Source: a virus
Lineage: Duplodnaviria > Caudoviricetes
Virus record (IMG/VR): IMGVR_UViG_3300045003_000152
Location: 1-34,166 of that record
DNA length: 34,166 nucleotides
Direction: 5' to 3' (one strand)
A program made the position numbers and the translations under genes. Below, piece after piece: positions 2,012 through 32,200 of this stretch. Each line of letters begins with the position of its first letter. Position 1 is the stretch's first letter. The notes beneath the pieces were generated by a model. It had not been told where the DNA came from, made no database searches, and worked only from the letters and a program-made list of their open reading frames with translations.

Positions 2012-2248
2012 TCAACGCCCGGCAAAAGAACTTGCGTGCAGTTGAGCGGCCGGCCCGGTAACTTTGGCGCGGTATCGCTCGACGCCCTCGAGGTAGATCA
2101 GACGGGCGACGCTGGAGGTGGAGCGGTTCAGGAGCGTGGACAGCTCTTCGAGCGCACGGCGCTCGTCGGGCATCAGCCGCATGTATACGGGCTTGCTGGA
2201 CAGCACGCCGCGTGGTGAGCGCGTGATGGGGGCTTTCTTGCGGAGCAT
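2012..2248 (-). CDS. Small early regulator (ribbon-helix-helix-like, Cro/Cox position)
   Basis: KPVYMRLMPDERRALEELSTLLNRSTSSVARLIY fits RHH pattern; first gene divergent from repressor. Confidence 0.6.
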   Translation of the reverse strand: MLRKKAPITRSPRGVLSSKPVYMRLMPDERRALEELSTLLNRSTSSVARLIYLEGVERYRAKVTGPAAQLHASSFAGR

Positions 2249-2286
2249 GACGGTATACTTCCCTTCGTTAACCTTGCACAACCCTG

Positions 2287-2315
2287 ATAATACACACCGA
2301 TCGGTGTGTATGCAA
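2287..2315 (-). promoter_or_regulatory. Early lytic sigma70 promoter overlapped by 22-bp perfect palindrome (repressor operator)
   Basis: Minus strand TTGCAT-N17-TATTAT; ATACACACCGATCGGTGTGTAT at 2290-2311 is a perfect palindrome. Confidence 0.75.
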
Positions 2316-2330
2316 TAAAAAACAAACCGT

Positions 2331-2789
2331 ATGGTAAGTATCGGCGACCGACTGCGCGATGAACGGAAGCGCACGTCTCTGTCACAACGCGCGTTCGCTG
2401 AACGCGGTGGTGTGACGGAGAAGACGCAAGTGCTCTATGAAAAAGGGGAGCGCGTGCCGGATGCGATCTATCTGGAAAAGATTGCGGCCGCGGGCGTGGA
2501 CGTGCTTTTCGTTTTGACGGGGCACCGCAACTCAGCCGAACTGTCGCCCGATGAGGAAGTGCTGGTGACGGGTTATCGGTCCCTCGATGCGAAGGGCCGT
2601 GCTGGCGTGCTCGGCATGATCTCCGGGATGACGCAACAGGGAGCGACTGAGCCTGCGCCGGCGAAGAGCTCGAAGGTTCGCCAGAACTTTGAGGGTGCCA
2701 ACATCGGCCAGCACGTCACGGGCGATGTGACGGCGCCGTTCTCGATCAACATGGGCACTGCAGGGCGAAAGAAGAAGCGCGAAAGTTGA
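2331..2789 (+). CDS. Prophage immunity repressor, XRE/HTH_3 family, no S24 peptidase domain
   Basis: IGDRLRDERKRTSLSQRAFAERGGVTEKTQVLYEKGERVPD; divergent from early operon. Confidence 0.9.
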   Translation: MVSIGDRLRDERKRTSLSQRAFAERGGVTEKTQVLYEKGERVPDAIYLEKIAAAGVDVLFVLTGHRNSAELSPDEEVLVTGYRSLDAKGRAGVLGMISGMTQQGATEPAPAKSSKVRQNFEGANIGQHVTGDVTAPFSINMGTAGRKKKRES

Positions 2790-2838
2790 CCACAGCAGAC
2801 AACGGCAGGGCCAGCCGTAGGAGAAAAAAGGTAAGTCA

Positions 2839-3588
2839 ATGAATCAGAAGTTCGATGGAGAAATCGGGCAAGTCGCCGGCGGGGATGTGAAGAGCAACAG
2901 TGCGCAGACCAGCGTCAACGTGCACTTCCACGGTGGTGAGCCCAACGCTGTCACTACGAAGTTCATAACCGACAAGCAACGCGCCGCAATTGCGCGCAGA
3001 GCGTTCGAGATAGAAGCAAAGACGGGCACCGATAAATTGATGGTGTACCGACGCCTCAAGACCGTTTTCGGCTTCGAGTTTATCGAGCAGATGCCGCGCA
3101 GTACGTATGAACGGGCGATCAAGTACCTGGACAGCTGGATCCGAAATGGCAACCTCGGATACCCTCCCGATCCGTCCGGTGAACAGAAGGTAAAACACAC
3201 AGCTTCGCCTGCACCGACACCGCGTCGCGAGGCTCCTGCCCCGCGGCCGCAATTTTCAGCGTCCTCGGTTGCAATGGCATCCGCTCCTGTCACATCCCCG
3301 GTGAGCCCTGCCCTCATGCAACAAAATGGCAAGCCATCGCGGCGGGGTGCGGTGGCACTGGCTGGTGTCGCGGCGATAGTCGCTGCGGCTGGCGCGTACG
3401 TCTATGCCGACAGGCATCGTGTCCACGTCCCTCAACAAGTCCAAGCCGCTGAGCCGCCGCAATGCGAATACGGCGGCAATCGCTACTCGCTGGGTGGCGT
3501 CGTAATGCAGGCAGGGATTCGCCAGGAATGCGTTGCCGACGGCGAGCACGGGGCGAGGTGGGAACGGGCTAGCGGCCGCCGGCGTTAA
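2839..3588 (+). CDS. Membrane-anchored protein: ORF6C-like domain, Pro-rich linker, TM helix, small Cys-paired (DUF1496-like) C-terminal domain
   Basis: VYRRLKTVFGFEFIEQMPRSTYERAIKYLDSW; KPSRR then GAVALAGVAAIVAAAGAYVYA; CEYGGNRYSLGGVVMQAGIRQEC. Confidence 0.75.
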   Translation: MNQKFDGEIGQVAGGDVKSNSAQTSVNVHFHGGEPNAVTTKFITDKQRAAIARRAFEIEAKTGTDKLMVYRRLKTVFGFEFIEQMPRSTYERAIKYLDSWIRNGNLGYPPDPSGEQKVKHTASPAPTPRREAPAPRPQFSASSVAMASAPVTSPVSPALMQQNGKPSRRGAVALAGVAAIVAAAGAYVYADRHRVHVPQQVQAAEPPQCEYGGNRYSLGGVVMQAGIRQECVADGEHGARWERASGRRR

Positions 3589-3608
3589 TCGGCTGTTACC
3601 AAGGGCAG

Positions 3609-4748
3609 TTAGGTGCCATCGATCTCAGGCACCTCGCTCGCCTTGACTTCCAGATCGAGGTCCGATGTAAATCCGCCGTTACCGTCGAGCGTATGTGTAA
3701 CGCGCGCGACGATCCACTTGCAGTCGTCGATGACACGTTTGTAACCGCGCACGGTGACAGGCAATTCGGTCATCAGCTCTGGTCGGCCGAGCGCGAGCAC
3801 GATGCTGAACTCCGCAACGCCGCGTTGCAGCTTCTCCCATTCCGCCTTCGCCGCGCGCGTCGCGTTGCTCTTGTTCGCGTAGGTGTGCCGCAGCACCTTT
3901 ACGTTCTCGGCGGTGCCGAACAACACGTCGCCGCTCTTGTCGATCGGCTTCTTCTTCGTGGTGCGGCGCCTGCGCCGCTTCACGGTGGTCGACTGCTTCT
4001 TCGCGGTGCGCGTGTTCAGGTAGAACGCCTGCACGCCGGAATACGTGTCGCGATCGGCGACGCCGAACTCGTGGCGATCGCCAACGTCGCGCGTGATCGT
4101 GATGGCGGGCAACGGCTTGCCGCTGGCCGTCGTCGCCTCACCGGCCTTGATGAACAGCAGCTTTCCGTTCTTCACTGTCGCGATCGCATCGAACATTTTC
4201 GCCAGGCGCGACAACAGGTTCGCGTCCGACTCCGCGGTCTGGTCGATGTGGTCGACGAGCTGGCCGTCGAGCGCCTTGCTGATGCGCGCCTCCACCTTGT
4301 TCTGGCTCGCGATCGCGCGCACGATCGCGCCGACGGTCTGACGGTGCCACGATCGCTCCTTCTTGATCGACAGGCCTGCACGCAGATCGACGCTGCGCGC
4401 GCGAATCGTGAGCACGTCCGGCGTGCCGGTGTGCCGCACCTCGTCGACGACGAATTCGCCCTTGTCGACGAGGCCGTTTGCGGCACCGGCCCAACCGATC
4501 GCCACCTTCAATCTCACACCGCGGGTCGGAATCTCGAGCGCGCCGTCCGAATCGTCCAGGCTAATGTCGAGCTGGTCGGCTTCGAAGCCGCGGTTGTCCT
4601 GCAGCGTCATCGAGATCAGCCGGCCGTCGAACTTGTGCGAGATGTCCTTTCCGTTCAGCGTAATCGAGTAGATCGCGCACGGCACACGATCGTCGGCCAG
4701 GACGGTTTTCTGCATCAGGTCGGCGCCCGGCAGGTCGGCGAGGTTCAT
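3609..4748 (-). CDS. D: Tail/baseplate hub protein gpD
   Basis: LQDNRGFEADQLDISLDD, HIDQTAESDANLLSRLA; start MNLADLPG overlaps U stop. Confidence 0.93.
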   Translation of the reverse strand: MNLADLPGADLMQKTVLADDRVPCAIYSITLNGKDISHKFDGRLISMTLQDNRGFEADQLDISLDDSDGALEIPTRGVRLKVAIGWAGAANGLVDKGEFVVDEVRHTGTPDVLTIRARSVDLRAGLSIKKERSWHRQTVGAIVRAIASQNKVEARISKALDGQLVDHIDQTAESDANLLSRLAKMFDAIATVKNGKLLFIKAGEATTASGKPLPAITITRDVGDRHEFGVADRDTYSGVQAFYLNTRTAKKQSTTVKRRRRRTTKKKPIDKSGDVLFGTAENVKVLRHTYANKSNATRAAKAEWEKLQRGVAEFSIVLALGRPELMTELPVTVRGYKRVIDDCKWIVARVTHTLDGNGGFTSDLDLEVKASEVPEIDGT

Positions 4749-10125: not shown

Positions 10126-10875
10126 CTACGCCGCGACGCCCGGAGTGTCGAGCCCGGCCAGCCGCGCCGTTGCGACCTGATGGTAGGCCGGCTCGAGCTC
10201 GCAGCCGATCCAGTTCAAGCCGCCCTGTTTCGCAGCGTCGAGGAACGTCCCGGATCCGGCGAACGGGTCCAGGACGACGCCGCCGGCCGGCGCCAGGCGC
10301 ACGACTTCGCGCGCGAGCTGCGCGGGCTTTTCGGTCATGTGACGCTTCGGGTGCGCGAGGCGTTCGGAGAACACGCCGGGCAGGTACACGTCGGCGCGGC
10401 GCACGGCACCCTTCGTCGCCCAGACCAGGAATTCGGCCTGCTGCGCGAAGCCGCCGGCGCGCGGCCGTGTACGGCCGCTCGTCTTATCCCACACAGCGAC
10501 GCCGCGCCACGTGAAGCCGGCCGCCTGGATTGCATCGGTGAGGCTCGGCAACTGGCGCCAGTCGACGAAGCAGACGAGGTGCGCTTCGTTGCGACTGACG
10601 CGGTAGACCTCGGCGAGCCACGTCATGCACCAGAACGTCCACGACCGTTGATCCTTGCTGTCGTGCTGGAATTCAGGGTAGACGGTCTTCACGTCGCCGC
10701 CGATGTACTTGCTCGATGGCGCCTGGCTGCGCGACGCGCTCGTCGTGCCGCCGGACGAGTAGGGCGGATCCGTGAAGGTCAGGTCGATACAGCCGTCGGG
10801 CAACGCGCGGAGCACGCTCAGTGCGTCGGCCAGATGAATGCGGTTGATCAGGTCAGCGGAGATGGGGTGTTGCAT
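10126..10875 (-). CDS. N4-cytosine/N6-adenine DNA methyltransferase (beta class)
   Basis: DPPY motif IV precedes H-x-TEKP and DPFAGSGT motif I. Confidence 0.93.
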   Translation of the reverse strand: MQHPISADLINRIHLADALSVLRALPDGCIDLTFTDPPYSSGGTTSASRSQAPSSKYIGGDVKTVYPEFQHDSKDQRSWTFWCMTWLAEVYRVSRNEAHLVCFVDWRQLPSLTDAIQAAGFTWRGVAVWDKTSGRTRPRAGGFAQQAEFLVWATKGAVRRADVYLPGVFSERLAHPKRHMTEKPAQLAREVVRLAPAGGVVLDPFAGSGTFLDAAKQGGLNWIGCELEPAYHQVATARLAGLDTPGVAA

Positions 10876-15911: not shown

Positions 15912-17792
15912 CTATGTTCCACTTGCCTTCGCGAGGATTTGCTTGAGCATTTCCGGAACTGTTCCTTTTGCCTCAACCGTCGCGGTGCGATAGGCATACT
16001 GATTCTTTGCGAGTTGGATACCGGCAGTTGCCTCAATTGCCTCACACGATGTCCTCCAATCGGTCCAGTTCGACTCGAGGTAGGTCTCAAGGTGATCACT
16101 CAGGGTAGCTACCTGAGTGCCGATTTTCTCCAGAGGGAAATCGACCTCATCCTCGCCAAAATACTTGAGAAGCCGGCGGTTCTCGGTGGAAAACTTCGTA
16201 CGGTCACTCTCTATTGCAGCCGGCTTTTTGCCAGCAGCTTTAGCTCGTTCTTCAAAGCCAGCATCTCCGTCGAAAAGTACGTAGGTTGGTATTCCGAGGG
16301 AGGTAAGAATGGCATGAGCGAGGGGAATCCCCCCTTTGCCGCCAGCGGAAACAATTGACAGCCCTTGTGATTCGAGACATCCGACGGCGTCCCGATCTCC
16401 TATGCCGTAGAAAACCGCCGCCTCGGTATCTCCTTCGACAAGTAGCACGCGTGTTGCGAACAACGCGATTGAAAGACGACTCGTAACGACGCCATCGAGT
16501 TGGCGGGCGACTTGGTCGGCATCAACCGTTCCGTTGAGCTTCGTCTTCACGTCGTCGACCGTGGCGCGATGCACGGTGACGGCGGGAATTTCGTCAGACG
16601 ATCGCGTGAGCCGGCGTATCTGATGGAAATGGCGTGCTTCAAGAAAGTACGGGCTATGAGTGGCATACGCGACCTGAATGCGCTTACTGGTGTCTTCGGC
16701 CAGTGACCGTAGAACTTTCGCAAACGTCTGCGCTTGGATCGGGTGTTGAAAAAGCTCCGGTTCCTCGATCGCGAGGCAGATCACCCCCTCTGCCGATGCA
16801 GCCCCTGACCGCGCCAAGAGCTGGAGAGCCGAAATTAGAAGCGTACGCTGGAACCCGTGCCCCTGTCGCTCCACGGCCGTCTCGGTTGCGCCATCGAGCA
16901 CTGCCACTTCGAATGTGGTTCGAGGTGCCTTGAGCTCTACTTCTGCTGGCGACACCGTGACAGCCCGGCCCGGGGAATATGAAGAGACGACATCGTTGAG
17001 CTGAGCCGTCATTTTCTCAAGCTGCGCTTTGAACTTCTCCGCATAGACAGTCTGCTGCTTCGCGCGTGATTCCTCGACGATCTTTGCAATTTCTTCATCC
17101 GCAGCAGCACGATCCACGGAACGCTCAAGGATCCGACCGATGATGCTCGATTTCCCGTCGACTGACTCTTCGCTCGCCCGAAGGTCGGCAGTGACCAAGA
17201 CGAAGTCAAAAAGACCGCTCATCTTGCCGCCACTGTTGAAGCCGAAGAAGTTGGTCTGCAGAGATTCGGGTGCGTCGATAAGTTGATCGGTGTGACTGGC
17301 CTCCCACGTCGTCATGGCTTGATTAGCGGCATCGAGGCTGCTCCAGGGTGGGAGGCCTAGCGAAGGATCGGACTCTCGCAACTCGTTGTACACGACCCTC
17401 TTGTCGCCGGCCGATCCCTTGCTGCGAATGTCGTTGAATGGCGGGTAACTCTTGGAGTTTGCAGATATGCTTTCAGCGCCATCTTTGCTTCGGCGCTTCC
17501 ATGCGGTGAACGTCGTAGTGCCCTCGGGGGCATATTTGCCAAGCTCAGCTCGGTCCTTTTCCGTGAGGTCGTCGAATGTGACCTGAACTTCGATGTCTTC
17601 GTCGGACGCGCCGAAGGAACAGTCCCTCTCGGTGAGCAAACCCGGCCGCCCGTTAAAAAACCAGTCGAGTGCGCGGAGCACCGTGGATTTGCCGGTGCCG
17701 TTTGGCCCAATCAGCGTCGTGACGGAATCAAAAGGAATCGCCACGTCTTTCAGTGTGCGGAAGTTCTTGATGCGAACGGATTGGATCTTCAT
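15912..17792 (-). CDS. OLD-family ATP-dependent nuclease (ABC ATPase + TOPRIM), putative anti-phage defence
   Basis: IKNFR, Walker A GPNGTGKS, QGHGFQR signature, Walker B IEEPE, ATHSPY H-loop, TOPRIM VEGDTE and FDGD; start MKIQSVRI. Confidence 0.9.
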   Translation of the reverse strand: MKIQSVRIKNFRTLKDVAIPFDSVTTLIGPNGTGKSTVLRALDWFFNGRPGLLTERDCSFGASDEDIEVQVTFDDLTEKDRAELGKYAPEGTTTFTAWKRRSKDGAESISANSKSYPPFNDIRSKGSAGDKRVVYNELRESDPSLGLPPWSSLDAANQAMTTWEASHTDQLIDAPESLQTNFFGFNSGGKMSGLFDFVLVTADLRASEESVDGKSSIIGRILERSVDRAAADEEIAKIVEESRAKQQTVYAEKFKAQLEKMTAQLNDVVSSYSPGRAVTVSPAEVELKAPRTTFEVAVLDGATETAVERQGHGFQRTLLISALQLLARSGAASAEGVICLAIEEPELFQHPIQAQTFAKVLRSLAEDTSKRIQVAYATHSPYFLEARHFHQIRRLTRSSDEIPAVTVHRATVDDVKTKLNGTVDADQVARQLDGVVTSRLSIALFATRVLLVEGDTEAAVFYGIGDRDAVGCLESQGLSIVSAGGKGGIPLAHAILTSLGIPTYVLFDGDAGFEERAKAAGKKPAAIESDRTKFSTENRRLLKYFGEDEVDFPLEKIGTQVATLSDHLETYLESNWTDWRTSCEAIEATAGIQLAKNQYAYRTATVEAKGTVPEMLKQILAKASGT

Positions 17793-17974
17793 AGTTGGTC
17801 CCCACTTCTTTTTGTCTATGGCACGAACACCGGCTTGCTGCCCCGAAACAGCGACGTTATTCAACCAGCAGGTGCCGCTATTAAAGCAGGCTTTCGCGGG
17901 AAGCGATATTCCGTCCGAGTTATGTCCCATGTCCGCCTAACCTGGAACGACGGAATGTCAGGACGTGGTTTTGG

Positions 17975-28058: not shown

Positions 28059-29378
28059 CTAGATTGCATCCAGTCCAACTGATGAGCCGAACCATACCGA
28101 GCGTGCTATCGAATAAGTTACGGTCGATAGCACATTCGCAGCACAGTTGGTTGCCGGATTCGGTACCCAAAAGATCGTGTTCGAGCTGGCGGCATCGAAA
28201 TTCTCGACGACAGCCATCACGTAGTTATTTTTGTGAGCTTGAGCCTGAGCCCACTCCCGATTCGTCAGTACGGGTGCGCAGGTCGCAACAGAACTCTTGA
28301 CTTCGACCAAGATGGTTCGAGAACTCTTTTTCGCTAACAGGTCACACCCGAGCTGCATGCGAGATACGTCATGTACGGTCCAGCCGGCTAGGGTTAATGC
28401 TTCGGCGACGCATTTCTGCGCATCCCAGCCGCTATTGTGCTGCGGTGCCGACACAATAGTTCCGGCCGGTGGCAGAAGAGGAATCGCGGGGAGTGCGACT
28501 GGCGCCGGTTGTGCGGCTTGTTGTCCGGGATGCTGAACTGCGACCGTCCCGGTTTCAGCGGCGCCGTCCGCAGCTCGCAGATAGGTGAAGTTTCCTCCGG
28601 CTTCGATAATTCGAGCGTTCAAAGGATTTTCGGGGGAATCATCGAAGTAAGCTTGGAACTCTTCGAGCGAGAAATTGAAGTCGACCATGAAATCTCGAAT
28701 CCCGACTGTTGATCGTTCCGCAAGCTTGAGCCCCATACCAGCGTCATGATAGAGAGCCACGATCAACGGCAGCGCGGGAATGCGCACGCCAGTCGGCACG
28801 ACGTATGGCGCGAAATTAAAGATGGCCGATGAATCAATGGCCGCGTACCCGGTGCGACCGGGATCGATCCGCAGCCACTTCCGGTGTTTTTCGCCTCTGT
28901 AGCTTCCAGTCGAACATAGGCTACAACTCGAACCTGAGAACACACCAGGGGTGGGGCTCGCTAGAAATTGGCATTCTTCTCGAGATTGATTGAGGAATGC
29001 GGCTCCTGCCAATATGTTGGCAGGAGCATAGCAACCAATTCCTTTTTGTATATTTAAATTGTTTCTCCAGGTATTTTGCGGCCCTTTGCCGGGGCTCGAA
29101 ACTCCACTCCGTGCCAAAAAATTGCTTTCAAAGAGCATCAAGACTGCCGCTTCGAGTGGTTTTGACGCCTTCGCATACAGGTCGTCGAGTAATATTTGAA
29201 TAACTTCGACAGATATAAATCTTCCCGAGTGCATGCTCGGAATGTCATTTTGGTAGAACTTGAGGGCCAGAAATATTTGTGTAAATCTGCCTTTAAACCA
29301 CTTGCCTACCGCCGATTTGTGAGCCGAAAGGCAATCAAGGGAAGTATCAAAAAGTACATTTTGAGTCACTGGAATCAT
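28059..29378 (-). CDS. Putative restriction endonuclease with C-terminal DUF3883-like PD-(D/E)XK domain
   Basis: GWTVHDVS...GCDL...VEVKSS...LTNREW; start overlaps the stop of the C5 methyltransferase. Confidence 0.72.
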   Translation of the reverse strand: MIPVTQNVLFDTSLDCLSAHKSAVGKWFKGRFTQIFLALKFYQNDIPSMHSGRFISVEVIQILLDDLYAKASKPLEAAVLMLFESNFLARSGVSSPGKGPQNTWRNNLNIQKGIGCYAPANILAGAAFLNQSREECQFLASPTPGVFSGSSCSLCSTGSYRGEKHRKWLRIDPGRTGYAAIDSSAIFNFAPYVVPTGVRIPALPLIVALYHDAGMGLKLAERSTVGIRDFMVDFNFSLEEFQAYFDDSPENPLNARIIEAGGNFTYLRAADGAAETGTVAVQHPGQQAAQPAPVALPAIPLLPPAGTIVSAPQHNSGWDAQKCVAEALTLAGWTVHDVSRMQLGCDLLAKKSSRTILVEVKSSVATCAPVLTNREWAQAQAHKNNYVMAVVENFDAASSNTIFWVPNPATNCAANVLSTVTYSIARSVWFGSSVGLDAI

Positions 29379-30568
29379 CGCGTCTCTCCCCGTGCGATGG
29401 CATTAATGTATTCTGCGGGGCTCAATGAGCCACGCATTAATTTTTGAAACAAGGTATCCGGTGAGTGTAAATAATTTTTCGCGGATCCATCTTCTCCCGC
29501 GCTGAGTGGGGGAAGGTCGCTAATAGCGTCTTGCACACCACACACAATGGGCAAATCATCAAATAAATCACGTGATGACCCAGATCGGGTGATAGGACGC
29601 GGACTCTGGATCTCTTGAGCACCGTGGCGATTGCCGACAAGGAATACACGTTGCCGCTTTTGCGGAATACCGTAGGCATCTGCATTCAGGCGCCAAGTAT
29701 GCACATCAAATCCGGACTCGGAAAGCGTTGTCTTTATCTCCTCCAGCACTTTCCCTTTCTCCATGCTAAGCAAGCCCGGCACATTTTCGAAAACGAAATG
29801 TGAAGGTTTTAACGCATCTAGCACCTTTGCGTATGACTTAAACAGGTGGTTGCGCTGATCCTGCATGGAACGGGCGTTGCCGGCGGTGGAAAATCCTTGG
29901 CACGGAGGTCCGCCGAGAACGATTAGCGGTTCCGTGGCAGTGGAGTTTTTTCTCGCTGTAGAGATTAAGCTCTCGAAAACATCTTCGTTTGCGATATCTC
30001 CGAGCACAGTTGGGCTATTCAGGTTGGCCGAGTGCGTCTCTAGAAAGGATGCCTCGATATCGTTGGATGCGAGAGACTTCCAACCGGCCCACTCGAAACC
30101 TAGGGCGAGTCCGCCCGCGCCACAGAAGAGATCGACGTACTGGCCTACGAATGGGAAGCCCAATGCTATTTGATAGGCGAGTAACGGTGGTACAGCATTT
30201 CCGATTTGCTTGTACACGCTCCCTCTGACTGCTTTGAAGATAAAATCATCTGGAAAGCTTTGGAGGCGTGCGCCTTCTCGTTGGGAAATTAGGCGATGCT
30301 GGCCACCATCAAAGTCGTAGTGAGCAAAACAGCCATTCCCAGGGCGATTAAAGTATGTGGTGATCGTATAAGCTGGTTCATGAGCACGAAGTCGACCATA
30401 GTACGTTGATCGACTGCCTTCGCCCCTTGCGAAGCTTTCGCGTATTTGCGCCAATCGCTTGGACGGAATGGTGTCGGGAATATTCTTCCAATTTCCGCCG
30501 GGCGGAACGCTCTTGATCATGGCAACGTCGAGGTCGCTCAACGTGGCGCTATAATGGTTTTCAATCAT
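29375..30568 (-). CDS. Circularly permuted C5-cytosine DNA methyltransferase (Alw26I/Eco31I/Esp3I-like)
   Basis: TRD and motifs IX-X (REGARLQSFPD, YKQIGNAVPP) precede motif I DLFCGAGG, IV GGPPCQGFS, VI ENV and VIII QKRQR. Confidence 0.92.
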   Translation of the reverse strand: MIENHYSATLSDLDVAMIKSVPPGGNWKNIPDTIPSKRLAQIRESFARGEGSRSTYYGRLRAHEPAYTITTYFNRPGNGCFAHYDFDGGQHRLISQREGARLQSFPDDFIFKAVRGSVYKQIGNAVPPLLAYQIALGFPFVGQYVDLFCGAGGLALGFEWAGWKSLASNDIEASFLETHSANLNSPTVLGDIANEDVFESLISTARKNSTATEPLIVLGGPPCQGFSTAGNARSMQDQRNHLFKSYAKVLDALKPSHFVFENVPGLLSMEKGKVLEEIKTTLSESGFDVHTWRLNADAYGIPQKRQRVFLVGNRHGAQEIQSPRPITRSGSSRDLFDDLPIVCGVQDAISDLPPLSAGEDGSAKNYLHSPDTLFQKLMRGSLSPAEYINAIARGETR

Positions 30569-30580
30569 CTAACTTTAAAG

Positions 30581-32200
30581 TTAATACAACTTCAGCAGTG
30601 AATCGCGAGAAAGTGGGCTTAGCCCGGGGAAGGATTCGAGTGCCGCAGAAAATTGCGATTTTTTCAAACCGTACGCCTTGGCAACCGCCACCTCAAGGAT
30701 ATACTCGTATTGAGTTGGGTTGCCTATACACTTTCTCGTGATTTCAGAAAGCCGCCGAACAATTGTCAGTCTTCTTAGGTCCGGAATTTTTACGCCGCGG
30801 ACTAATCCCAGAGAGATATGGCTGGTTGTCGATCTCGCGCGGATTTGAGTTTCAAACACGAGCGAATTCATTACGCCCAGCATGGCATATGTTTGTTCCT
30901 CAAATTGCGGCTCAAACAACGCAATGTTGAGCGAGTTTCCCGTCACAAAGCCGGGGTCGACAAGCGTTGCATGCATTCGACGCTGCTGTGTTGGGCGAGA
31001 CACGTCGCGCCACGCGATGCGCCGTAGGTCTGCGCTCCGGGGAATGCGCGTAGTCCGCGAGTCGATTCGGTTTACAGCCTGCTCGATGAGTTGGAATCGC
31101 CCAACCATTCTTCCCTTCAGGAAGCGGTATTGGCCATGTTCACTAAATTTTGTTGCGATTCGTGTTTCGTCTAGTTCACGGCCACACCACAGACCAAAGG
31201 CTCCGCCTTCGACGTCCGACCACGAAGGCAGGCTGCCAAGAGCGTCAAAGAAATCGCTTGTCGCACCGCTGATAGTAAAGGGGATGCAAAAGTCACGCTC
31301 TTCCCAAATTGCGTTCGTCGGGGAGATGGACCTCACGTCGTACGCTCCAGTCTCATGACGGAAGGTATGTAACTCGAAGTGCTGATGCTGGACTTCGAAT
31401 TTTTGAGCTACCGCGACCATGGATGATTGGTCGACTTTGGTGAACAGGCGTGACTCCGCTGCGAAATAGCCAACGTCTGTAAAGCGAAGGCGGCCCAACA
31501 ACCACTTTCGAAGTGGCACTGATACTTGGTCAGCGAAGGTGGATGCTGGTAGAACCATGGCAACGATGCCGTCCGGCACCGTAAGTGCTTCTGCCAACTC
31601 GGCGCCTACGCGTGACAAGTTTGTTCCCCACCCGGCGAATTTTCGCTGTGGTTGCGAGCGTGGATAGTCGGCCGCTAGGCGTTGGTCTAAAGCGCGGAGC
31701 TCGGCGATATATCGCTCTTGGTCAGTCCTACTGAGCTGATCTAATTCTCTACGATCAGGTTTCAGGGCGTCCCAAGGAGGGTTAGTTACCACCAAGTCAA
31801 AAAGCTGAGCGTCTTTAGCCAACGCGAACGCGTCGCCAGAGACGGATTTCAAATTCACTCGACGCCGAAGTGCGATCGGAAGGGCCGCTGCGCGGCGACT
31901 TGCCTCCTCCAATGCCGCTTCATCGGTGTCCCATAGCGTGACGTCCCAACTGCGTCGGATCCCATGCTTCTCTGCACATTCGATCAACCACCATACCAGG
32001 CGACCATCTCCTGAGAATGGATCGATCACTGACAGACGCTTCTTGGGTGAATGTGCAAGCAGCCTAACGACATTTTCCGCAAGAAAATTGCCGATTGTGG
32101 CGGGGGTGTAGAATTTTCCAGTTGCGCGAGCCAGGAGAGATTTTTGAGCAAGCGCTAGGCCTTGATTGCGGCGCAGCTTCAGGACTGGAAGATGGTTCAT
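30581..32200 (-). CDS. N6-adenine DNA methyltransferase, gamma class (Alw26I/Eco31I/Esp3I-like)
   Basis: GKFYTP, DPFSGDG, NPPWDALKPDRREL, GTNLSRVG, C-terminal TRD. Confidence 0.88.
   Translation of the reverse strand: MNHLPVLKLRRNQGLALAQKSLLARATGKFYTPATIGNFLAENVVRLLAHSPKKRLSVIDPFSGDGRLVWWLIECAEKHGIRRSWDVTLWDTDEAALEEASRRAAALPIALRRRVNLKSVSGDAFALAKDAQLFDLVVTNPPWDALKPDRRELDQLSRTDQERYIAELRALDQRLAADYPRSQPQRKFAGWGTNLSRVGAELAEALTVPDGIVAMVLPASTFADQVSVPLRKWLLGRLRFTDVGYFAAESRLFTKVDQSSMVAVAQKFEVQHQHFELHTFRHETGAYDVRSISPTNAIWEERDFCIPFTISGATSDFFDALGSLPSWSDVEGGAFGLWCGRELDETRIATKFSEHGQYRFLKGRMVGRFQLIEQAVNRIDSRTTRIPRSADLRRIAWRDVSRPTQQRRMHATLVDPGFVTGNSLNIALFEPQFEEQTYAMLGVMNSLVFETQIRARSTTSHISLGLVRGVKIPDLRRLTIVRRLSEITRKCIGNPTQYEYILEVAVAKAYGLKKSQFSAALESFPGLSPLSRDSLLKLY

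Follow-up and report, generated by a model that had tools for sequence, protein, structure and literature searches.

The C-terminal tail of a phage lysogeny repressor and the N-terminal head of the membrane protein encoded next to it form a selected, co-evolving module, built on matched copies of one short motif. The module was analysed from its occurrence in a 34,166-nucleotide stretch of DNA (the window), for which an earlier note had pointed out the shared motif, and from its relatives in other phages and prophages.

The repressor and partner genes of the window

The flanking genes (ogr, tail D, U and tape measure) identified the window as a P2-like prophage, and it is a KS5-like P2 prophage of Burkholderia. 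The XRE-family immunity repressor gene (2331..2789, + strand) encodes a 152-aa orthologue of KS5 gp11, an annotated repressor with which it shares 94% identity. Its HTH (aa 3-65) was matched by Pfam HTH_3 (E 3.4e-5) and HTH_31 and by PHROG 17822 (E 3.4e-10), and is followed by a helical hairpin (aa 73-102), a disordered linker, the motif and a basic tail. In the AlphaFold2 model the helices lay within aa 4-102 and the C-terminal tail was of low confidence. The motif itself, QNFEGANIGQHVTGDVTAPFSINMG, occupies aa 118-142 (2682..2756, + strand) and is better conserved within the clade than any other part of the repressor. No S24 peptidase domain was found by Pfam in the window repressor, nor in 89 motif-bearing repressors scanned (80 aligned and 9 further), which bears out the earlier statement that this repressor has no S24 autoprotease.

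The partner gene (2839..3588, + strand) starts with MNQKFDGEIGQVAGGDVKSNSAQTSVNVHFHG and lies in the same orientation as the repressor, 49 nt past its stop codon. It encodes a 249-aa single-pass membrane protein of PHROG 6521, orthologous to KS5 gp12, an annotated membrane protein (68% identity). The N-terminal motif (2839..2937, + strand; core aa 1-18, with an extension to aa 33) was modelled as a low-confidence coil in the monomer. A putatively cytoplasmic three-helix domain follows (aa 43-104; 2965..3150, + strand; AlphaFold2 pLDDT 85-89), then a low-complexity linker, a transmembrane (TM) helix predicted from sequence (aa 170-190; 3346..3408, + strand) and a small C-terminal domain (3460..3561, + strand) with conserved cysteines at aa 209 and 231. 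The last of these gave a weak match to DUF1496 (E 0.075) and is probably periplasmic. Membrane orientation was taken from the positive-inside rule: because RR stands just before the TM helix, the partner N-terminus is predicted to be cytoplasmic. The database name 'alpha/beta hydrolase' for the partner was rejected, as no Pfam or NCBIfam match backs it.

A perfect 22-bp palindrome (2290..2311) between the divergent genes is, from its position, a candidate operator. Beyond it, the divergent early gene (2012..2248, − strand) encodes a small Arc-like repressor resembling KS5 gp10 (PHROG 3431, E 2.2e-28), which is likely the lytic-side counterpart in the switch. The region 2150-3700 contained no sigma-70 promoter and no terminator, against 0.5 and 1.7 expected. 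With the consensus of the E. coli-type LexA box, no site was found in the window against 0.25 expected, a weak negative given that the window lacks part of the prophage. In RNA runs, relatives were present only as short contigs, none of which spanned the repressor and partner genes.

Other genes of the window were also recorded. A cargo block at 28059-32200 (− strand), comprising a 539-aa N6 methyltransferase, a 397-aa C5 cytosine methyltransferase and a 439-aa NOV_C-domain protein, looks like a restriction-modification-type defence locus. A 672-aa OLD-family ATPase/TOPRIM protein in the tail-lysis region (15912-17930, − strand) is likely an exclusion or defence gene, and an N6/N4 DNA methyltransferase gene (10126-10875, − strand) lies between the tail sheath and tail fibre genes.

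Both copies of the motif are under purifying selection

The repressor end and the partner start share the consensus Q-x-F-x-G-x(1,2)-[IV]-G-Q-x3-G-D-V, at the positions that the earlier note had given; in the window clade the repressor copy has a one-residue insertion relative to the partner copy. Local alignment of the facing 45-aa ends gave 12 identities in 29 columns (score 38, shuffle p 0.004). By itself the match of the window pair is suggestive, not decisive, and it rises above chance because it is conserved and co-varies in relatives. The remainder of the two proteins proved unrelated, as had been claimed, the repressor body matching HTH_3/HTH_31 and the membrane protein PHROG 6521. The longer consensus first proposed held in relatives for its core, while its final S-[IV]-N was kept in the Burkholderia clade and only loosely elsewhere.

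Among 43 repressors of the Burkholderia-type clade, the motif had an amino acid identity of 0.77 and a dN/dS of 0.09, compared with 0.63 and 0.13 for the HTH and 0.39 and 0.53 for the linker, and among the 43 partners the motif core had 0.85 and 0.08, with dN/dS of ~0.5 in the linkers and 0.15 in the two-Cys domain (43 sequences), all of these ratios being rough as synonymous sites are near saturation. Between relatives the HTH differs while the repressor tail stays. Both copies of the motif are under strong purifying selection.

At a locus nearly identical to the window (L032), 3 of the 9 identical core residues share a codon. Over 45 cognate pairs, codons were shared at 185/418 identical residues (44%) vs 6759/16551 (41%) in non-cognate pairs; recent DNA duplication as the general cause of the match was ruled out by this near-background figure. 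Two pairs with high codon identity, L126 (9/11) and L204 (8/12), appear to have arisen by more recent duplication, which means that the match is at times reset in this way. Selection, together with the lack of excess codon identity in cognate pairs, indicates that the match is kept at the protein level, and the earlier argument from differing codons is upheld.

The motif is strictly terminal and moves between unrelated proteins

Pattern and profile scans, in which the consensus Q-x-F-x-G-x-[VI]-G-Q-x3-G-[DN]-[IV] was searched, located the motif in Burkholderia, Paraburkholderia, Ralstonia phages, Pseudomonas, Zoogloea, Dechloromonas, Cellvibrio, Marinobacter, Marinobacterium and Neptuniibacter. 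When 1.84 billion protein representatives were searched by profile, 50 of the 51 matches fell at an N- or C-terminal end, the remaining one being an unrelated repeat protein. Among 401 genomes of the genus of G001, a Pseudomonas, all 4 genomes with E<0.005 carry adjacent pairs. A class-wide sample of 400 genomes, for which part of the candidates was scored, yielded no clear new locus, and the module is therefore uncommon. Some three-quarters of 67 pattern matches on genome contigs were chance matches in wrong frames, and 16 were judged real by eye.

The 108 distinct repressor tails fell into 49 clusters. A motif-headed gene was present within 400 nt in 41 of the 47 clusters with enough downstream DNA, and within the locus in 43 of 47, values biased upward because many loci were found via the motif, with four repressors and one partner classed by hand. 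For clusters found via the repressor, an adjacent partner was present in 21 of 25; the four misses were a broken partner (L364), a divergent motif (L381) and two loci with none (L371 and L018). At L364 the motif-headed partner is cut short and the repressor tail is intact.

On the partner side, 128 distinct N-terminal motifs stood on 11 body families, two of them chance matches. The partner bodies thus number about nine, unrelated and mostly membrane-anchored, with a TM segment in 52/70 and 27/28 members of the two largest families. A motif-tailed repressor lay at most 1.8 kb upstream of 92 of the 100 motif-headed genes with room for one. The eight misses were three chance matches, four genes in loci with a probable sub-threshold repressor tail (seen for L267 and L380, with L388 assumed alike) and one orphan. 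The orphan, L207 (2495-3226), has no repressor upstream and lies near a tail D-like gene in an apparently decayed prophage.

Up to three motif-headed genes occur per operon (L078/L094, G633), and in Pseudomonas loci repressor and partner often abut, with a spacing of -4 to +5 nt. Both XRE and Phage_CI_repr HTH proteins occur among the repressor bodies, their middles being unrelated; in marine loci the tail stands on 230-aa repressors whose middles are likewise unrelated. One viral contig carries two repressor-partner pairs (L014 and L016), each with a 330-nt spacer in place of the usual 50 nt. P0122, a 142-aa protein without an HTH, carries the motif close to its C-terminus together with remnants of a partner-like helical region.

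Tail and head change in step

In 45 clusters with a partner (the four clusters without one having been left out), the cognate core score was 40.5 vs 35.3 for permuted pairs, with p 2e-4 to 2e-3 after collapse to 17-21 groups. The window clade adds little to this signal, its cognate ranks being 7-33 of 45 for the most part, and some of the cognate similarity can come from common descent within lineages. A cleaner test used the best 80 of 568 loci matched by HTH pattern alone, with partners located by their helical domain. The 52 pairs obtained, in 14 groups, scored 44 for cognate vs 34.5 for shuffled pairs (p 5e-5), and the cognate partner was the best match in 6-7 of the 14 groups.

Matched shifts were seen by eye at individual loci: GDVAQII in one protein with GDVAQLI in the other (L551-L556), GQNIYGNI with GQNVFGNI (L519), GDVKNISG with GDVKKVING (L491), IxVxG in both proteins of phage RSA1, and, at L204, one extra residue inserted in each protein. 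A distinct form, R[IV]AGRDY (subtype B, the window form being subtype A), was fetched at 69 loci, where a matching partner accompanied 25 of the 28 distinct repressors. The bodies of eight such partners scored 47-55 bits on the helical-domain HMM of the window family, which places both forms in a single system. With both subtype HMMs run on all loci, 95 A-A, 28 B-B and no mixed pairs were counted and 16 loci were without a partner; the counts are not independent and the loci came from subtype-specific patterns. The co-occurrence and co-variation that the earlier note had put forward as an HMM check were thus found. On the repressor tree, a quick one of 103 columns with a mosaic HTH, the subtypes interleave with nine changes, at least five of them forced. 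Both subtypes are found in a single genome record set, IMG 2882925227 (L400 of subtype A; L440, found via the subtype B pattern).

Repressor tails persist where the partner is absent

Of 69 distinct repressors found by their HTH, 42 had a partner by HMM and three more by eye, 21 ended in a G/V/N/Q-rich tail but showed no partner up to 1.5 kb away, including L543 with a broken one, and the other three had neither. No partner stood beside a tail-less repressor in this set, and three near-complete Ralstonia-type proviruses had no partner gene anywhere. Conservation of the motif in both proteins among homologues was supported by selection (dN/dS 0.09 and 0.08); the 21 tails without a partner, which speak against a simple switch made of a fixed pair, had not been foreseen. 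Since tails persist where the partner is absent, the tail has a job that is independent of it; most simply, this is self-association, the partner being an optional addition. The mechanism proposed below takes this asymmetry into account.

Downstream of several partnerless repressors (L018-L025, L499, L509 and L535) lies highly variable cargo, part of which appeared defence-like by eye (ParA-like ATPase, nucleoside-transferase-like and kinase-like proteins). In the cultured phage RSA1 (L028, 1175-2395), a transposase gene separates the repressor from the motif partner; it is missing in the relatives L029 and L030.

Domains of the partner proteins

The helical domain of the window partner is homologous to that of Flk_N-bearing partners in Pseudomonas. 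These matched aa 23-154 of Flk (NCBIfam PRK10715, E 9e-16), at 58 bits and so far below the Flk cut-off of 353; the window partner itself gave no NCBIfam match to Flk. In a longer-protein search, Pfam Flk_N was found in 85 of the 120 matches listed, of 170. Such Flk-like proteins (Flk_N plus a C-terminal anchor; L078, 1838-2434, and the 85 listed homologues) are encoded directly after the repressor in Pseudomonas prophages. They may hint at a phage connection of the Flk N-terminal domain or at an influence of phages on the export of flagellar proteins.

Weak matches to antirepressor families, ORF6C and Ant among them, fell on the helical domain and not on the motif, both in the window partner (ORF6C, E 0.016; phrog_463, E 0.043) and, for phrog_245, in the partners of L108 (E 3e-8) and L078 (E 2.9e-4). 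PHROG 17822, which matches the repressor HTH, also matched the helical region of the L108 partner (E 7.9e-22). The L108 partner is soluble, without a TM segment, and many partners lack the helical domain entirely. No repressor-partner fusion occurred among 120 listed of 170 matches, and PADLOC gave no match for 10 partner proteins.

The top four fold matches of the three-helix domain were the phage recombination proteins Sak, NinB and the Red-beta C-terminal domain with exonuclease and with the SSB tail, at Z 7.8 (rmsd 3.3, 71 aligned), 7.5 (5.5, 66), 6.2 (2.8, 62) and 6.2 (3.2, 64), all under the tool's caution level for helical bundles and with a Foldseek E of 1.0. The modelled resemblance to these proteins is a lead only. 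Foldseek gave no match at E<=0.001 in PDB or BFVD, and a PDB sequence search returned a best E of 0.053 for the partner and HTH domains only for the repressor. In the ESM Atlas there was no match for the repressor tail. Both motifs were low-confidence coil in the AlphaFold2 monomers, which are uninformative on assembly.

Proposed mechanism and alternatives

Because the match is selected and co-varies between the two proteins in many unrelated phages, repressor and partner probably bind each other directly through the motif. Matched co-variation on unrelated bodies points to like-binds-like recognition, as a fixed host factor would not give it. Whether the bound motif would take an amyloid state, judged by analogy, could fall either way. 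The reading that we prefer, plausible if somewhat short of probable on the sequence data, is that the motif acts as a like-binds-like beta-strand tag and that membrane capture of the repressor lowers repression.

In this proposal the tail would first have been a self-association element of the repressor, since it persists without the partner, and membrane partners would have copied it to join the repressor assembly. The partner would be made during lysogeny and kept latent, as suggested by the co-oriented and often abutting genes. A signal that clusters the partner would then make it a template on which repressor tails stack into an assembly, possibly of cross-beta type; captured at the inner membrane, the repressor would leave its operator, and induction would follow without RecA-stimulated cleavage. 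The polarity would be that of amyloid signalling pairs, with the N-terminal motif on the receptor and the C-terminal motif on the effector, and one to three partners per operon would provide several inputs to one switch. Lowered repression is supported by the weak antirepressor-family matches of the partner domain. Against it weigh the 21 partnerless tails, the low cognate ranks in the window clade and the ciprofloxacin response of KS5 lysogens described below; a co-transcribed antirepressor also needs a latency mechanism, and sequence cannot give the direction of the partner's effect on the repressor.

A stronger version, drawn by analogy and rather unlikely, is a prion-like switch in which membrane sensors would nucleate cross-beta conversion of the repressor tail. 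Induction would then be all-or-none and without cleavage, the subtypes would insulate co-resident prophages, and several sensors could serve one repressor.

KS5 lysogens are sensitised to ciprofloxacin and were depleted 12.7-fold, for which the authors consider possible induction (PMC12780198); DNA damage therefore probably reaches the KS5-type switch in some way. If the modelled fold resemblance holds, the three-helix domain of KS5-type partners might read SSB-coated single-stranded DNA, which would explain this sensitivity in a repressor with no S24 domain. The response may also reflect another inducer encoded outside the window.

An opposite direction of control, which we consider improbable, would make the membrane partners latent toxins or abortive-infection effectors whose head is masked by the repressor tail, and which are freed when the repressor is lost or titrated through superinfection, curing or failed induction. 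The partners do occupy a variable cargo slot after the repressor and are diverse, mostly small, transmembrane and optional; a tail without a partner is common, a partner without a tail was met once, in the decayed L207 prophage, and some partners are broken (L364) or separated by an insertion sequence (RSA1). The absence of any PADLOC match among the 10 partner proteins counts against this, as does the receptor-like layout of the window partner with its conserved, probably periplasmic Cys domain; it is the receptor, and not the effector, that bears the N-terminal motif in known amyloid pairs (10.1101/2024.11.07.622273).

Marginally less probable again is a non-amyloid tether or co-repressor, in which 1:1 beta-strand addition would hold the repressor-operator complex at the membrane, or lend it the three-helix domain, and so stabilise lysogeny. 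Co-expression with the repressor would fit a helper role, as would the soluble L108 partner, and the match of PHROG 17822 to both the repressor HTH and the L108 helical region suggests that the two domains perhaps occur fused. Yet no fused form was among the 120 listed matches, many partners have no helical domain to lend, and the G/V/Q/N composition is that of stacking motifs (10.1101/2020.01.06.895854).

It is doubtful that the two motifs instead bind a third protein (a host protease adaptor, a chaperone or a phage protein) for which repressor and partner compete. The predicted exposed coil of both motifs agrees with such binding, and a decoy role would need matching sequences too; a fixed host factor, however, does not explain both subtypes in IMG 2882925227 or matched switching many times over, and in the loci read the pair had no third conserved gene alongside. 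The idea that the match has no joint function, and is left over from repeated duplication of the repressor 3' end in place or due to low-complexity chance, could appeal to the p of 0.004 for the window pair alone and to the codon identity at L126 and L204, and is already largely refuted and very improbable given dN/dS of ~0.08-0.09 with synonymous sites near saturation, cognate codon identity close to background, the strict terminal position and the absence of mixed pairs.

How temperate phages with non-self-cleaving repressors are induced is largely open, and the motif offers a defined, 20-residue co-evolving handle on this question, one that is present both in KS5, a cultured phage, and in many betaproteobacterial and gammaproteobacterial prophages. 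If repressor and partner are bound through it, the lysogeny switch would be linked to the cell membrane in a way absent from the literature searched. Should the motif stack as amyloid, transcriptional control would join cell death among the processes run by amyloid signalling; should the direction be reversed, the pair would be a toxin or defence module of a new, repressor-gated kind. Natural orthogonal binding tags would also be at hand in the matched subtypes.

Comparison with known systems

Among the closest described counterparts of the window pair are its KS5 orthologues gp11 and gp12, and the passages on them in PMC3091744 describe no shared motif or interaction. In line with the earlier note, no account of a motif shared by a repressor tail and a partner head was found in the literature searched, which took in few subscription journals; the motif-list supplements and figures of the BASS work lie outside this coverage and could hold related motifs. 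Lambda-type CI repressors differ in their C-terminal S24 autoprotease, absent in all 89 repressors scanned.

Qtip of vibriophage VP882 also inactivates a repressor without cleaving it, by sequestration to a cellular site (10.1101/2019.12.16.877910). It is induced by quorum sensing and binds the N-terminal DNA-binding part of a repressor that autoproteolyses (10.1101/2019.12.16.877910). Unlike Qtip, for which the text available describes no shared motif, the partner here has a membrane anchor, is encoded in the same direction as the repressor and mirrors the C-terminal tail of that protein. Flk (Fluke) is a membrane-anchored regulator of flagellar secretion (PMC13344023); the Pseudomonas partners share its C-terminal membrane anchor and differ in their prophage context and in the N-terminal motif upstream of the Flk-matching region.

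Described amyloid signalling pairs include BASS1-10 of the Bell/NLR type (10.1101/2020.01.06.895854) and the Bab/Agp pair with BASS11 in an E. coli prophage hotspot (10.1101/2024.11.07.622273). In such pairs the N-terminal motif is carried by the receptor and the C-terminal motif by the effector that it activates (10.1101/2024.11.07.622273). The present module shares with BASS pairs the adjacent genes, a motif of ~20-25 aa at one C-terminus and the next N-terminus, and its movement between unrelated domains while matched within pairs, and with Bab/Agp the prophage location. Its composition (G 18.5, V 11.6, Q 10.4, N 8.6 and L 0.6 percent) resembles that of BASS motifs, which are rich in Q, N, G, V and I and poor in K, P and L (10.1101/2020.01.06.895854). 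The likeness in layout and composition drawn by the earlier note was supported.

Its label 'RHIM-like' was not. Motifs of the RHIM, PP and BASS3 kind are likewise short, G/Q/V-rich and homotypic-looking, but membership was rejected as their core G-phi-Q-phi-G occurs in 0/184 motif cores, the core here being G-x-[VI]-G-Q (155/184). The Bab residues named in the text of 10.1101/2024.11.07.622273 are I87-G88-S89-V90, Q92, D99 and N100. In register with these text-named residues alone, G, V and Q coincide, with N at Q+8 in 100/184 cores, whereas the D-N pair at Q+7/+8 of Bab is present in 0/184.

The main text on Bab/Agp (10.1101/2024.11.07.622273) mentions neither HTH, repressor nor XRE, and the available text of the BASS paper (10.1101/2020.01.06.895854) does not mention HTH. 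In contrast to BASS, what carries the C-terminal motif here is a DNA-binding immunity repressor in place of a Bell or cell-death domain, the N-terminal motif is on a small membrane protein in place of an NLR (NB-ARC/NACHT) or TGP, and the hosts are unicellular Proteobacteria. Judged by its domains, the module appears to be BASS-like in layout and not a member of BASS, having no NLR, TGP or Bell domain and carrying its matched motif on an immunity repressor and a membrane partner.
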